A stretch of DNA of 64,000 nucleotides, taken from assembly GCA_027021705.1 (NCBI GenBank), contig JALUTT010000152.1:22109-86108 (forward strand), in the 5' to 3' direction. Both the position numbers and the translations under genes were made by a program. Of this stretch, positions 28,988 through 33,386 are shown one piece after another. Below the pieces are notes generated by a model. The model worked only from the letters and a program-made list of their open reading frames with translations, was not told the DNA's origin and did not search any database. This DNA is from Anaerolineae bacterium (lineage in GTDB: Bacteria; Chloroflexota; Anaerolineae; S140-20). The first letter of the stretch is position 1, and every line of letters starts with the position of its first letter.

Positions 28988-29221
28988 TCAACGAATGTTG
29001 AACGAATCAACGGATTGTGCTCGATTTTCCTCACCGACTCGGCTTTCTGAGAGTCCGGGGTGGTGTTGGTCAACGAATGATGAACGAATAAACGAATAAC
29101 GAATGGACCACGGGAATTCGTTTATTCGTTCTTCCATTCGTTGACGATATTGTACCCCAAGAACGGAGGCAGCGCAACGACCGTAGCCAATCCGCTCAAT
29201 CCGCTCCCCCAATCTGTTGAC
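28988..29221. repeat. Nested palindromic AACGAAT/ATTCGTT element
   Basis: Inner hairpin 29069-29145 (GTCAACGAATG..AACGAATAAACGAAT / ATTCGTTTATTCGTT..CATTCGTTGAC); looser outer arms 28988-29017 and 29188-29221. Confidence 0.75.
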
Positions 29222-29247: not shown

Positions 29248-29300
29248 TTGACGGGATCGGGCTTTTGTGCTAGAATATCCCCCAGGGGGGGATGGGGATA
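29248..29300 (+). promoter_or_regulatory. merA promoter with overlapping CsoR/RcnR-type G/C-tract operator
   Basis: TTGACG-17 nt-TAGAAT (29248-29276), immediately followed by ATCCCCC-AGG-GGGGGAT. Confidence 0.65.
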
Positions 29301-29349: not shown

Positions 29350-31041
29350 ATGAGCTCACAACAGCGTATCGCTCTGCGCGTCGAAGGGATGACCTGTGAT
29401 TCCTGCGCCGCCCACGTCACCCGCGCCCTGCAGGGGGTGCCCGGCGTCGTCACCGTGGAGGTGCCGGGCTGGCAGTCGGCCCAGGCCCAGGTGGTGGCCG
29501 AGGCCGGCGTTCCCGACGAGGTCCTGGTTCGGGCCGTCGAGGCCGCCGGCTATCGGGCCGCCGTCCGAGAACGCCGGCCCCTCGAGCGGGAGGAGAGCCG
29601 GAGGGAGGTCCTGGGAGGCTTTCGGCTCCAGGGCCGCGGCCCCTTCGACCTGATGGTCATCGGGGGTGGGTCGGCCGGCTTCGCCGCGGCCATCCGTGGG
29701 GCGGAGTTGGGTGCGCGGGTGGGGATGGTGAACGATGGGGCCATCGGCCTCGGCGGCACCTGCGTCAACATCGGCTGTGTCCCCAGCAAGACCCTCATCC
29801 GCACGGCCGAGGCGTGGCACAAGGCCGGCCATCACCCCTTCACCGGGGTGCACACCCGCCAGGAGCGCCTCGACTGGTCCCAGGTTATCGCTCAGAAGGA
29901 CGAGCTGGTGAGGGAGCTCCGCCAGGCCAAGTACAGCGACGTGCTCCGGGCCTATCCCCAGATCACCCTCATCGAAGGGCGGGCCCGCTTCAACGATGAT
30001 GGAACCGTCTCCGTCGGCGACGAGGTCTATCGGGCCGACAAGTACGTGATCACGACCGGGGCTCGCCCCCGCCTGCCCGACCTGCCGGGGGCCGACGAGG
30101 TCGAAGTGCTGACCAGCACCACGGCGATGGCCCTGCCAACCCAGCCCCGATCCCTCATCGTCCTGGGCGGGCGCTTCGTGGCCCTGGAGCTGGGGCAGAC
30201 CTTCGCCCGCTTTGGAACCGAGGTGACGATCCTGCAACGGAGCACCCGCATCATCCCCCAGCACGAGCCGGAGATCGGCGAGGCTCTGCGGGGCTACCTG
30301 GAGGATGAAGGGCTCACCGTGGTCACCGGCGTGCGGCTGCTGGCGCTGCGGGCCGAGGGCGATGAGAAGGTGGTCGTCGCAGAGGTGAGGGGCCGGGTGC
30401 GGGAGTTTCGCGCCCAGGAGGTGATGGCCGCCCTGGGGCGCGTTCCGAACACCGACGGCCTGGGGCTCGTGGAGGCCGGCGTTGCGCTGGGGTCGAAAGG
30501 GGAGGTGCTGGTGGATGCGACGATGCAGACCTCCAATCCCGACATCTACGCAGCCGGCGACGTCACGGCCCTGGCCAACTACGTCTACGTGGCCGCGATG
30601 GGGGGGGTGATCGCGGCCGAGAACGCCCTGACCGGCACCCAGCGGCGTCTGGACCTGTCGGTGCTGCCGGAGGTGATGTTCACCGATCCCCAGGTGGCCA
30701 CCGTGGGGCTGACCGAAGCCCAGGCCCGCCGGCTGGGCCACCAGGTCAAGACCGTCGTCCTGCCCCTGGAGCACGTGCCCCGGGCGCTGGCGGCGCGGGA
30801 TACGCGGGGGCTGATCAAGGTGGTTGCCGACCAGGCGACGGACCGGCTGCTGGGGGTCCACCTGCTGGCCGCCGAGGCCGGCGAGGTGGTCCAGACGGCC
30901 GCGATGGCCCTGCGGTACGGGGCCCGGGTGGCCGACCTGACGCAGATGCTCTTCCCCTACCTGACGATGGTGGAGGGGCTGAAGCTGGCGGCCCTGGCCT
31001 TCGAGAAGGACGTGACCAAGTTGAGTTGCTGCGCGGGGTAG
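29350..31041 (+). CDS. merA: Mercuric reductase
   Basis: N-terminal HMA GMTCDSC; GGGSAG FAD motif; GGTCVNIGCVPSK; FPYLTMVEGLKLAA; C-terminal LSCCAG. Confidence 0.95.
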   Translation: MSSQQRIALRVEGMTCDSCAAHVTRALQGVPGVVTVEVPGWQSAQAQVVAEAGVPDEVLVRAVEAAGYRAAVRERRPLEREESRREVLGGFRLQGRGPFDLMVIGGGSAGFAAAIRGAELGARVGMVNDGAIGLGGTCVNIGCVPSKTLIRTAEAWHKAGHHPFTGVHTRQERLDWSQVIAQKDELVRELRQAKYSDVLRAYPQITLIEGRARFNDDGTVSVGDEVYRADKYVITTGARPRLPDLPGADEVEVLTSTTAMALPTQPRSLIVLGGRFVALELGQTFARFGTEVTILQRSTRIIPQHEPEIGEALRGYLEDEGLTVVTGVRLLALRAEGDEKVVVAEVRGRVREFRAQEVMAALGRVPNTDGLGLVEAGVALGSKGEVLVDATMQTSNPDIYAAGDVTALANYVYVAAMGGVIAAENALTGTQRRLDLSVLPEVMFTDPQVATVGLTEAQARRLGHQVKTVVLPLEHVPRALAARDTRGLIKVVADQATDRLLGVHLLAAEAGEVVQTAAMALRYGARVADLTQMLFPYLTMVEGLKLAALAFEKDVTKLSCCAG

Positions 31042-31044
31042 GGC

Positions 31045-31932
31045 CTACGGAGGGGCATCCAGGCCCAGGTACTCGACGATGGCCTGAAGGAAGGTCTCCA
31101 GCACCTCGATGCGGTGGGGCAGCGTTCGATGCACCTCGCGGGGGTCCACCCGCCAGTAGATGTGGACGAGCAGGTTGCGGAAGCGGGCCATATCGGCCAT
31201 CACGTCGGCCACGTCCGGCGGGAGGATTCCCCCTCGGGCCAGGCTCTGGAAGACGGAAGCGTAGTCCTCGGCGATGGGAAGCCCCAGCGTGGCGATGAGG
31301 TGATTGCCGATGTTCAGGCAGCACTCGGTGGCCGTCTGGAGCCGTCGTTCCACAACGTCCTGGGCGTCGCTATCGGCCAGGTAGGCTGCTTCGGAGAGCC
31401 GGGCTTTCTCCCGGAGCTTGCGCAGGTCGGCGTCGAGCCGGCGGAGCTGTTCCAGGACCTTCTCACGGTTCACGGCCATAGCAGCCCCTTTCGGTTGTCG
31501 GAGCTGGCGGACGAAAGCCGCCAATGCCTCCTGCTTCAGGCGGCGGGCTTCGGGGTAGAGGGCGAGGACCCGCTCACGGAAGGCGGCCTCACCCCCGCCA
31601 TCGGCGGGGGAAAGCCGTCGTCCCTCCGTGAGCACGGTAAAGGCCAGGGTAGGGGGGGCCTGGCGCAAGTTGATCAGCGTGAAGTCATCGCTCTCCAGAA
31701 GGCGGCTCAGCCGGCGATAGAGGGTCTGGTCCAGGACCTCCATCGCTTCCCGGTCCAGGGCTTCCAAGGGAAGGTAGGCCAGGTCCAGGTCACTCAGGGG
31801 AGTGGCTTCCTCACGGCTGTAGGAGCCGAACAGGAAGAGGACGAGCCGGTCGGCCAGGTCGGCCGCCAGCGCTTCCAGCAGGGGAAGTTTCTCCCGGTAA
31901 AGGGGTCGGGTTCTCTGAAGCTTGTGGACCAT
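31045..31932 (-). CDS. Fused MNT nucleotidyltransferase-HEPN (MntA-HepT/DUF86) toxin-antitoxin protein
   Basis: FGSYSREEATPLSDLD (GSX10DXD) and RNLLVHIY (RX4HXY) occur in one ORF. Confidence 0.85.
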   Translation of the reverse strand: MVHKLQRTRPLYREKLPLLEALAADLADRLVLFLFGSYSREEATPLSDLDLAYLPLEALDREAMEVLDQTLYRRLSRLLESDDFTLINLRQAPPTLAFTVLTEGRRLSPADGGGEAAFRERVLALYPEARRLKQEALAAFVRQLRQPKGAAMAVNREKVLEQLRRLDADLRKLREKARLSEAAYLADSDAQDVVERRLQTATECCLNIGNHLIATLGLPIAEDYASVFQSLARGGILPPDVADVMADMARFRNLLVHIYWRVDPREVHRTLPHRIEVLETFLQAIVEYLGLDAPP

Positions 31933-31986
31933 TGGGTAGCCCTCGCTGCCCGTATTGTACCTTCTGTGGGCTTTCCAGTCAACCGG

Positions 31987-32127
31987 CGAGTGAGCGAGAG
32001 AGTGGTCCATAGCAGGCCGTCCACGAATTTCTCACAAATGCACGAATGAGGCGGTCCTTAATTCGTGTATTCGTGCCCCATTCGTGGACGGCTAGTCTCT
32101 CTATCTCCAAAGATATGGGTAATCACC
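31987..32127. repeat. GGTGATT-ended MITE-like repeat (one terminus missing)
   Basis: About 5 differences over about 110 nt versus the reverse complement of 53726-53836; ends GGGTAATCACC. Confidence 0.88.
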
Positions 32128-32143: not shown

Positions 32144-32276
32144 GGTGATGACCCACGAGTGAGCGAGGGAACGGGCCGTGGTGGGCCGTCCGCGAATCCT
32201 CACGAATGCACGAATGGGTCGGACTCTAGTCCGTGTATTCGTGCCCCATTCGTGGACGGCTATCCCGATAATCACC
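32144..32276. mobile_element. GGTGAT...ATCACC MITE-like element, full-length diverged copy
   Basis: Inverted termini GGTGAT/ATCACC; internal CACGAAT/ATTCGTG hairpin; GGTTAGGAG on both sides (32134-32142 and 32279-32287). Confidence 0.7.
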
Positions 32277-32299
32277 AAGGTTAGGAGGGAGGTGTGCGT

Positions 32300-33037
32300 A
32301 TGAAGGAGCGAACGGGCTGGAGCTGGAGTCTGGGGGGCTCCGTGATCGCCAGTCTCTGCTGCTTTGGGCCGGCGGTGGCCGCCCTCGTCGGCGTCGGTGG
32401 GGCCTCATTCCTGCTGGGCCTGACGCGCTACCGGCTGCCGCTGCTGATCATCGGCCTGGGCTTCGCCCTCCTGGGGGTGGGCATGGCCCTGCGCCAGAGC
32501 GCCCGGACTTGTGACCGGGAGCAGCACCGGCGCAACCTGTGGCGCTTCCCCACGGTGACGCTGATCACCTTTGTGGCGACCTATGGTCTGCTGACCTACG
32601 TCTTTCCCGTGGCCGTCTACAACGTCCTGGGGGCTACGTCGGGGATCCGGGAAGTACGGTCGGAGCGTCCGGCGGCTCCTGCGCCGGCCTCGCCATCCCA
32701 GCTTCCCGACGATGCCGCGCCGAGCCGCTCCGCCCCGGCGCAGGAGGCCCTGCCGCTGTCGCAGGAAGGGCCGGCGCCGGCAACGCCTACGCCGGAGGCA
32801 GGACTGCGGCGGGTGACCCTGGCCGTCAGCGGGATGACCTGAAGCGGCTGCGTGGCTGCCGTGCGCAGCATCCTCCTGCAGCAGCCGGGCGTCGTCGAGG
32901 CCGGGGCCGACTTGCGGCGACAGCAGGGATGGGCGGTCTACGACCCGGCCCGGATCGCGCCCCAGGATCTGGCCGATGCCCTCTCGCCCTACTATCCGAG
33001 CCGGGTGGTCGAAGACCGGCCCTACACAGAGCAGTGA
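32300..33037 (+). CDS. MerT-like transporter fused to an HMA domain; predicted selenoprotein (UGA 32840-32842 = Sec)
   Basis: ASLCCFGP TM motif. ORFs 32294-32842 and 32852-33037 are in frame; the junction reads GGG ATG ACC TGA AGC GGC TGC = GMT-U-SG-C, followed by HMA-like ..PGVVEA...WAVYDP. Confidence 0.8.
32845..32887 (+). promoter_or_regulatory. Candidate bacterial SECIS element
   Basis: Upper stem GCTGC-CGTGC-GCAGC (32855-32869) with loop 17 nt after UGA and G at loop position 2; lower stem CGGCTGC/GCAGCCG. Confidence 0.5.
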
Positions 33038-33050
33038 GCGAGGAGGAAAG

Positions 33051-33386
33051 ATGTCCGACGTGACGACCAAGCTGATCGTTCGCGCCCCGGCGGCGACGGA
33101 GACGAAGGTCTACCTGACGCCGGAGGTGGAGAAGAACCTGGATGTCCGGCTGGCCCGCATCGAGGGGCACGTCCGCTCCATCCGCCGGATGCTGGCGGAA
33201 CATCAGGACTGCAATAGCCTGCTGATCCAGATGGCGGCGGTCCGGGCGGCGATGACCCAGGCGATGGCCAAGCTGCTGGAAGGGCACATCGAGACTTGCG
33301 TGACCGAGTGCGTGGCGACCGAGGAAGGGGCAGATGCCCTGGCCGGCCTGAAGAAGGCCCTGGCCATCGTGCTCAAGAGCACGTAG
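33051..33386 (+). CDS. CsoR/RcnR family metal-sensing repressor
   Basis: RLARIEGHVRSIRRM..DC..LLIQMAAVRAA..LLEGHIETCV (C-H-C ligands); RBS GAGGAGG. Confidence 0.9.
   Translation: MSDVTTKLIVRAPAATETKVYLTPEVEKNLDVRLARIEGHVRSIRRMLAEHQDCNSLLIQMAAVRAAMTQAMAKLLEGHIETCVTECVATEEGADALAGLKKALAIVLKST

Follow-up and report, generated by a model that had tools for sequence, protein, structure and literature searches.

The window analysed here—a stretch of 64,000 nucleotides from an Anaerolineae bacterium—carries on its forward strand, at 32300..33037, a gene that annotation cuts short at an in-frame TGA but that, judged from sequence comparison, very probably encodes a single selenoprotein in which a MerT-like membrane domain is fused to a heavy metal-associated (HMA) domain. 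The gene begins with an ATG at 32300, positioned 7 nt past a Shine-Dalgarno-like run (GGAGGGAGG), and extends for 245 codons to a terminal TGA (33035..33037), the stop codon that also ends all eight orthologs. The same start methionine is used by the database protein P0002, which is the window's own product truncated at 180 residues. Around the inner TGA (32840..32842) the codons read GCC GTC AGC GGG ATG ACC TGA AGC GGC TGC GTG. When this TGA is translated as selenocysteine (Sec, U), positions 32300–33034 give 245 residues, with RRVTLAVSGMT-U-SGCVAAVRSILLQQPGV across the site, so that Sec at residue 181 replaces the first Cys of the motif GMTCxxC and yields GMT-U-SG-C.

A first-pass annotation, made by a model from the sequence alone, had noticed that the program-made list of open reading frames (ORFs) splits this gene although both parts lie in frame. 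That list indeed cuts it into 32294..32842 and 32852..33037, in one frame. The same annotation had placed the single TGA at the first Cys of an HMA motif, pointed to the sequence GMTCDSC in MerA some 3.4 kb upstream and reported HMA-like sequence for about 64 codons past the TGA. All three observations stand: exactly 64 open codons separate the inner from the terminal TGA, the Pfam HMA match (PF00403) spans the inner one, and GMTCDSC lies near the N-terminus of the mercury(II) reductase gene merA (29350..31041).

Conservation of the in-frame TGA

DNA from orthologous loci was obtained from species genomes (L042–L047) and from two metagenome loci (L050 and L051, the protein of L050 being identical to that of L043); the locus search used two peptide patterns only, so the number of genomes found to carry the family is a lower bound. 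At all eight loci with DNA (the window and seven distinct orthologous loci) the site reads GMT-TGA-SGC, the frame past the TGA stays open through a conserved HMA domain (SPYYPxQVxDDQP) and a second TGA ends the gene. The orthologous loci come from different assemblies and their proteins share about 43–62% identity.

Protein databases tell the same story in truncated form. A word-indexed protein search returned 15 matches, 12 of which (40–59% identity) stop exactly at GMT, the other three being P0002, a full-length protein (P0015, 36% identical to the window protein) and one ATPase fragment; 12 of the 13 non-self MerT-like database homologs thus terminate at GMT, and we infer a TGA at that point in each because they all share the same end. 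When 1.84 billion cluster representatives were searched with a profile, 632 relatives were obtained at E ≤0.001. Among the 150 representatives listed, 14 stop at the Sec site (after GM[TS] in 12 cases and after DKMT in two), 43 are MerT–HMA fusions with GMxCxxC and 93 are MerT-only proteins or fragments. Cys occupies the Sec column in distant homologs (GMYCPAC in P0015 and P0027, GMYCPRC in L053).

These data bear directly on the simplest alternative, that the TGA arose by recent nonsense mutation, leaving a pseudogene, or by a mistake in sequencing or assembly—an explanation that one window alone would be insufficient to exclude and that the annotation of the gene as truncated might seem to favour. 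The first-pass annotation had named Cys codons (TGC or TGT) in close relatives and reads revealing an error as results that would overturn its proposal. Instead, the close relatives keep TGA across all eight loci despite their divergence, Cys being confined to distant homologs, and 12 further database homologs, like the 14 listed representatives, end at the same residue. The stretch is covered by contigs from four of four sequencing runs, which differ from it at 0, 0, 2 and 3 sites and always agree with it at 32840–32842; two of these runs may be the source of the window DNA, and two differ from the window elsewhere yet keep the TGA. Since the sequences have diverged, a single erroneous source for all the assemblies is excluded. 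We therefore rejected mutation or error, which must be considered extraordinarily improbable.

Three of the runs (X1–X3) also contain several contigs from other organisms whose match to the window is confined to 32834–32871/98, that is, to the TGA and the core of the hairpin described below. On either side these contigs read as diverged homologs (ATLAIEG upstream and ILLFQQPGVLDA downstream, for instance), from which it follows that several organisms in those samples carry the family. A whole-protein search of the genomes of 60 relatives found no ortholog, returning only ATPase HMA domains and two other TGA-bearing HMA matches.

Two further loci with in-frame TGAs were seen. In a genome of the same class (G022:C14:18016–18204), an open frame of 158 codons contains an HMA match that includes a single in-frame TGA. 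At L023 (G039:C166, minus strand, ~271–1020 and 1037–1901) a related arrangement occurs as separate genes, in the order zf_CopZ protein, CsoR-family repressor, secreted HMA protein with GWT-TGA-NGC and, in an overlapping frame, a small MerT-like membrane protein; the secreted HMA protein is another UxxC candidate.

Conservation also addresses the possibility that UGA mostly terminates, the functional product being the 180-residue MerT-like protein and the HMA domain being rare, absent or made as a separate protein. Gene callers everywhere give the 180-residue form, MerT alone can transport mercury without MerP, and Sec insertion is generally inefficient. However, the 64 codons past the TGA are conserved at the protein level at all eight loci while their synonymous sites vary, and translation of this region is therefore required. 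Nor would a separate HMA protein be complete: strand 1 of the domain (residues 170–176) precedes the TGA, so an ORF starting at GTG 32852, which has no ribosome-binding site, would miss both that strand and the first metal ligand. In addition, the Cys forms are single fused proteins (the 43 fusions among the 150 representatives listed). Predominant termination is accordingly a very unlikely account of this gene.

A conserved hairpin downstream of the TGA

The first-pass annotation had described a stem-loop resembling a selenocysteine insertion sequence (SECIS) after the TGA, and a two-stem hairpin is indeed predicted there. This SECIS-like element (32846..32886, forward strand) spans 6–47 nt past the TGA and consists of an outer stem (32846–32851 with 32881–32886), an inner stem (32855–32859 with 32865–32869) and an apical loop, CGUGC, at 32860–32864. 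RNAalifold predicts it without guidance from an alignment of 64 nt, beginning at the Thr codon, that contains seven distinct sequences, and the minimum-energy fold of the window's own sequence is the same two-stem structure.

The alignment is 90% identical per column, though the encoded proteins are only 45–62% identical. Pairing on the predicted structure is found in 77 of 77 cells, against 16–58% when the structure is slid along the alignment as a control. Six pairs are invariant and four vary on one side, always to wobble pairs; one pair is compensatory, being C-G in four and U-A in three of the seven sequences through synonymous changes (GGC/GGT and CAG/CAA). Codons +5 to +10 after the TGA (GCT GCC GTG CGC AGC ATC) are nearly frozen at synonymous sites: for degenerate codons with invariant amino acids, mean pairwise codon identity is 0.90 at +5 to +10 versus 0.46 at +17 to +60. 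In the bacterial SECIS model of bSECISearch, a hairpin lies shortly past the UGA and carries G or U in its apical loop. The present loop starts 17 nt past the UGA and has G as its second position, which fits that model.

Selenocysteine machinery of the genome

Absence of Sec machinery had also been named as grounds for abandoning the proposal, and profile searches of the genome found that machinery, every component scoring above cut-off: selA (566.1 bits), selB (349.8 bits summed), selD (375.9 bits) and a tRNA-Sec (72.5 bits), which ARAGORN likewise calls as tRNA-SeC with anticodon tca (TCA). The selD gene is of the Sec type, with an in-frame TGA of its own at SCAG-U-ASK. Both selA and selB exceed their cut-offs in five of five ortholog-carrying genomes. 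Upstream of selD (locus L010, G000:C41, ~1330–1460 and 1531) we observed about a dozen tandem GGCGTGA-like heptamers.

Some uncultured bacteria reassign UGA, and the codon might accordingly specify Cys, Trp or Gly, whether because the genetic code has changed or because near-cognate read-through takes place without Sec machinery. Against this, TGA also terminates the window gene and all seven distinct orthologs, selA and selB read through without internal stops and the one TGA in selD is at its known Sec site; furthermore, the Sec machinery is complete and a conserved hairpin stands at SECIS distance. We regard such decoding as highly improbable.

Several results count against the Sec interpretation, chiefly against its RNA element. 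Single-sequence free energy of the hairpin is no better than that of shuffled GC-rich sequence (z +0.14 to −1.7, and +1.5 over 91 nt), and support for the hairpin therefore rests on conservation. The three sequences with the compensated pair are related, so the compensatory change may be a single event, and the observed pairing was reached in 20 of 500 shuffles. An alternative hairpin, in which GCUGCGNG pairs with UGCGCAGC around the loop GCUGCCG, uses the first GGCUGC repeat and has the lowest energy of the folds predicted for L044 and L045. An Rfam scan of 32700–33100 at E up to 10 found no SECIS family, the only matches being two at chance level (a miRNA and a snoRNA). Finally, co-occurrence with selA is not discriminating, because 91 of the 121 genomes sampled from the phylum have selA (the unpublished genome G096 is in this sample). 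With these points set beside the conservation of the TGA, of the frame beyond it and of the pairing, the UGA at 32840–32842 is very probably decoded as selenocysteine.

Domain organisation and predicted fold

The protein divides into three parts. Residues 1–110 (32300..32629) form the MerT-like membrane domain, which is identified by profile comparison, by Pfam MerT matches in relatives, by predicted helices and by charge distribution. Residues 111–167 (32630..32800) form a linker rich in Pro, Ala and Ser that differs in length among orthologs and is gapped and unconserved in the family alignment. Residues 168–245 (32801..33034) form an HMA domain of the MerP/CopZ kind, recognised by Pfam, by its predicted fold and by sequence matches to solved structures.

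AlphaFold2 (AF2), run on a family alignment of nine rows, predicted helices at residues 12–40, 45–70 and 73–113, with a predicted local distance difference test (pLDDT) score of 56–75, a disordered linker at 113–165 (pLDDT <50) and a confidently modelled HMA domain at 170–241 (pLDDT 91–96) with the beta-alpha-beta-beta-alpha-beta order of a ferredoxin-like fold. Residue 181 sits in the metal loop between strand 1 and helix 1 of this domain. Helix 1 of the membrane domain carries a Cys-Cys pair (residues 20–21, 32357–32362), and a single conserved Cys (Cys71, 32510–32512) lies in the Arg-rich loop that joins helix 2 to helix 3. That second loop contains six Lys or Arg residues versus two in loop 1, and this concentration favours an inside position for the N-terminus and loop 2; the HMA domain is thus predicted to lie on the outer face of the membrane, as MerP does.

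PF00403 matches residues 173–228, across the TGA, with 31.2 bits (gathering threshold 24.8), and an HMA domain was found in all nine family members. Solved structures matched by its sequence include the metal-binding domains of Cu-ATPases, MerP and CopZ. Pfam MerT matches seven of the nine members weakly (best E 1.6e-5). The MerT-like assignment made at first pass was upheld by profile comparison: hhalign aligned the family with canonical MerT and MerTP at 99.8% (E 2.7e-30), laying SLCCxGP on SxCCxGP, a score to which the HMA region contributes in part. On the MerT model NF010314 the window protein reaches 18.1 bits against a cut-off of 150.

The merA locus and its neighbours

The merA gene at 29350..31041 (forward strand) encodes a protein with the N-terminal HMA motif GMTCDSC, a C-terminal CC pair, Pfam domain matches and a match to the MerA equivalog model TIGR02053 (560.8 bits, cut-off 454.45). 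It lies directly upstream of the selenoprotein gene at five of the eight loci, L042, L043, L044 and L047 among them, and this synteny upholds the mercury context suggested at first pass. At L042, merA (789–2465) is spread over three overlapping frames (789–1283, 1133–2431 and 1812–2465), which suggests frameshifts or assembly errors.

Downstream, 14 nt past the selenoprotein stop and preceded by GAGGAGG, comes a gene for a CsoR-family metal-sensing repressor (33051..33386, forward strand; PF02583, 76.3 bits). Its product has a Cys...His-x3-Cys ligand pattern and matches the NCBIfam models RicR, FrmR and RcnR below their cut-offs. CsoR-family genes also occur near the orthologs L042 and L043 and at the related locus L023. 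Upstream of merA, directly after a TAGAAT hexamer, a palindrome, ATCCCCC-A-GGGGGGGAT (29277..29295), resembles the C-tract/G-tract operators of CsoR/RcnR repressors and is a candidate binding site for the CsoR-family protein. Similar boxes were found at L043 (~345, upstream of merA), L044 (~893 and 4275) and L023 (~13), conforming to the pattern ATCCCC(C)-N1-5-GGGG(GGG)AT beside −10-like hexamers (TAGAAT, TAAAAT), before merA or the Sec gene. None of the five window ORFs scanned with Pfam is a MerR-family regulator; at L051 a MerR-family gene lies downstream. From this arrangement of genes and boxes, the mer genes may be under a CsoR-family rather than a MerR-family regulator.

At L044 and L045, genes for a redoxin, for DsbD_TM or CcmH and for a MerE-like protein stand beside the selenoprotein gene; such thiol-reducing neighbours would fit the upkeep of an exported Sec/Cys pair. 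In loci labelled Anaerolineae (L044, 1917–2333; L045, 3816–4226; L046, 3834–4250; L047, 1804–2220), the next gene after the selenoprotein gene is a conserved ORF of 137–139 codons that Pfam does not match at E 1e-5, at the place where the window has the CsoR-like gene.

Other features of the window lie between or before these genes. On the minus strand, a single 321-codon ORF (31045–32010) joins an MntA-like nucleotidyltransferase, which at 57.3 bits narrowly misses the cut-off of 60, with a HepT RNase toxin domain (110.9 bits); this ORF is not present at the same place in the orthologous loci L043, L044 and L047. The spacer in front of the selenoprotein gene is taken up by two tandem copies of an element of ~135 nt (31982–32115 and 32151–32283), which are 77–79% identical and contain inverted repeats (CACGAAT...ATTCGTG), and a different ACGAAT-rich repeat lies upstream of merA, with an inverted repeat at 29079–29097/29116–29134.

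Relation to known proteins

Two catalogued families share the architecture of the window protein. NF045683, named 'MerT/CopZ fusion-like heavy metal transport selenoprotein', likewise combines a MerT-type membrane domain with a following HMA/CopZ domain and is catalogued as a selenoprotein, and its profile positions ~150–233 match HMA domains. However, the window protein scores only 23.1 bits on this model (cut-off 375), E is no better than 1.6e-9 even for the best family member, and none of 301 sampled genomes of the phylum (including the three unpublished genomes G282, G201 and G096) attains the cut-off. The N-terminal part of NF045683 is similar to canonical MerT (P0123, with a score of 196 bits, matches PRK13751 too), whereas the window clade is only distantly MerT-like; this comparison was made by model name, length and profile scores.

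The second family, the MerTP fusion NF033556, is a Cys form that, like other Cys-type fusions, joins MerT to a C-terminal MerP-like HMA domain as in the window. It is the best-scoring NCBIfam model for all nine family members (best E 2.7e-20) and aligns over 181 columns by hhalign, although the window protein reaches only 54.9 bits of the 180 demanded. Unlike the MerTP fusion, the window clade has Sec in place of the first Cys, a long disordered linker and one conserved Cys in the cytoplasmic loop. On a third model, NF041115 ('UxxU_metal_bind'), the window protein scores 45.6 bits (cut-off 95).

Sec forms of such proteins appear in published tables (PMC2398784, PMC9312934, PMC13188914), which list a 'Mercuric transport protein MerP', a 'Putative mercuric transport protein' (PF02411, ABB16073.1) with the motif C/SxxU and a 'Cation-transporting ATPase E1-E2' with UxxC (ABB15669.1), and a small set of MerT-family CU selenoproteins is mentioned in a preprint (bioRxiv 10.1101/2022.07.06.499078). 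As listed in these sources, the catalogued forms resemble the window protein in having Sec at a metal-ligand position of an HMA or MerT domain, with UxxC in the HMA domain of the P-type ATPase, and differ in being separate MerP proteins, ATPase domains or MerT proteins with Sec in their own motif. In the window clade, Sec lies instead in a MerP-like domain that is joined to a divergent MerT, at merA-linked loci in genomes labelled Chloroflexota. A literature search for a bacterial heavy metal-associated selenoprotein combined with SECIS gave no match.

The description 'hidden selenoprotein' given at first pass is thus right in that annotation cuts a real gene short, but the idea is less new than 'hidden' implies, because catalogues already list MerP, MerT and HMA proteins in Sec form. 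The protein kind is already known, and the window clade is an uncatalogued member of it.

Proposed mechanism and choice of metal

We propose that SelB and tRNA-Sec decode the UGA under the guidance of the hairpin, which begins 6 nt further on, to give a MerT-type three-helix domain from which a flexible linker of ~55 residues would tether the HMA domain on the outside, with Sec-x-x-Cys in its metal loop. The outer Sec/Cys pair would capture Hg(II) and hand it to the Cys-Cys pair of helix 1, from which the metal would pass to Cys71 in the cytoplasmic loop and on to the HMA domain of the upstream-encoded MerA, to be reduced to Hg(0). The order of these hand-overs is inferred.

In the classical mer systems of Tn21 and Tn501, a relay of Cys pairs leads from an outer HMA protein to the CC pair in helix 1 of MerT and on to MerA. 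The proposed relay and the adjacent merA follow that scheme; the departures are that the proteins are fused, that Sec replaces one ligand and that, instead of MerR and its operator, the window has a CsoR-family gene and a CsoR-type palindrome, no merR having been seen there beside the selenoprotein gene.

Hg(II) uptake is the likeliest role because a bona fide merA lies directly upstream at five of the eight loci, and we consider Hg(II), as opposed to Cu or other soft metals, the probable substrate. Not everything at the locus agrees with a mercury transporter. In the window itself merA and the selenoprotein gene are kept apart by the convergent MntA/HepT gene, Pfam MerT (PF02411) does not match the window protein at E 0.01, and the family's cytoplasmic loop holds only one conserved Cys, whereas MerT of Tn501 and Tn21 has a second Cys pair there. 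Moreover, the neighbouring CsoR-type regulator has a Cu(I)-type ligand set, and the best matches of the HMA domain among solved structures are Cu-ATPase domains (E to 1.4e-33, with several repeats summed), with MerP at 3.5e-6.

These last two findings make copper the main alternative: the same selenoprotein would handle Cu(I) or another soft metal, as part of a CsoR-regulated copper system with an external Sec/Cys copper-binding domain. The position of a CsoR-family gene with Cys/His/Cys ligands 14 nt past the stop, the recurrence of such genes near L042, L043 and L023, and the roughly equal scores of the NCBIfam CopZ and MerP models all speak for it. However, the upstream merA is of equivalog level and has the C-terminal CC pair, the N-terminal domain is homologous to MerT and finds its best NCBIfam match in MerTP_fusion, and the import of copper brings no obvious benefit. 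The candidate CsoR operator, furthermore, stands before merA itself, which means that the CsoR-type regulator may respond to mercury. A role in copper handling thus seems unlikely, while deserving more weight than any of the alternatives to Sec decoding considered above.

A bolder reading would combine Hg(II) sensing by the CsoR family at the ATCCCCC-N-GGGGGGGAT box with Sec–Cys capture outside the membrane and gating by selenium. A CsoR-family repressor, not MerR, would sense Hg(II), acting at the box before merA; the selenolate of the tethered Sec–Cys HMA domain would give tighter and faster capture than MerP; and the full transporter would be made with selenium, while without it a bare MerT-like channel of 180 residues would result. 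All three parts holding together is a doubtful proposition, which we put forward as speculation.

Significance

The clade is at present annotated as a truncated hypothetical protein, as seen in P0002, its 12 homologs and the 14 among the 150 cluster representatives listed, and none of 13 truncated representatives scanned matches any NCBIfam model at E 1e-25. A model for the window clade would correct these truncated records and add the family to counts of the selenoproteome.

For the organisms themselves, the protein would place selenium right at the entry of mercury detoxification in genomes labelled Chloroflexota; the sequencing runs that hold the window DNA are labelled as hydrothermal-vent metagenomes. 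The antagonism between mercury and selenium, long discussed, becomes testable through a Sec-versus-Cys comparison at residue 181 of a single small domain, and the linked CsoR-type regulator, together with the box before merA, hints at a mer regulator of a non-MerR type. If the combined reading of sensing, capture and selenium gating were true, the mer system of vent-dwelling Chloroflexota would differ from the textbook one in its regulator, in its capture of the metal and in its gating by selenium.

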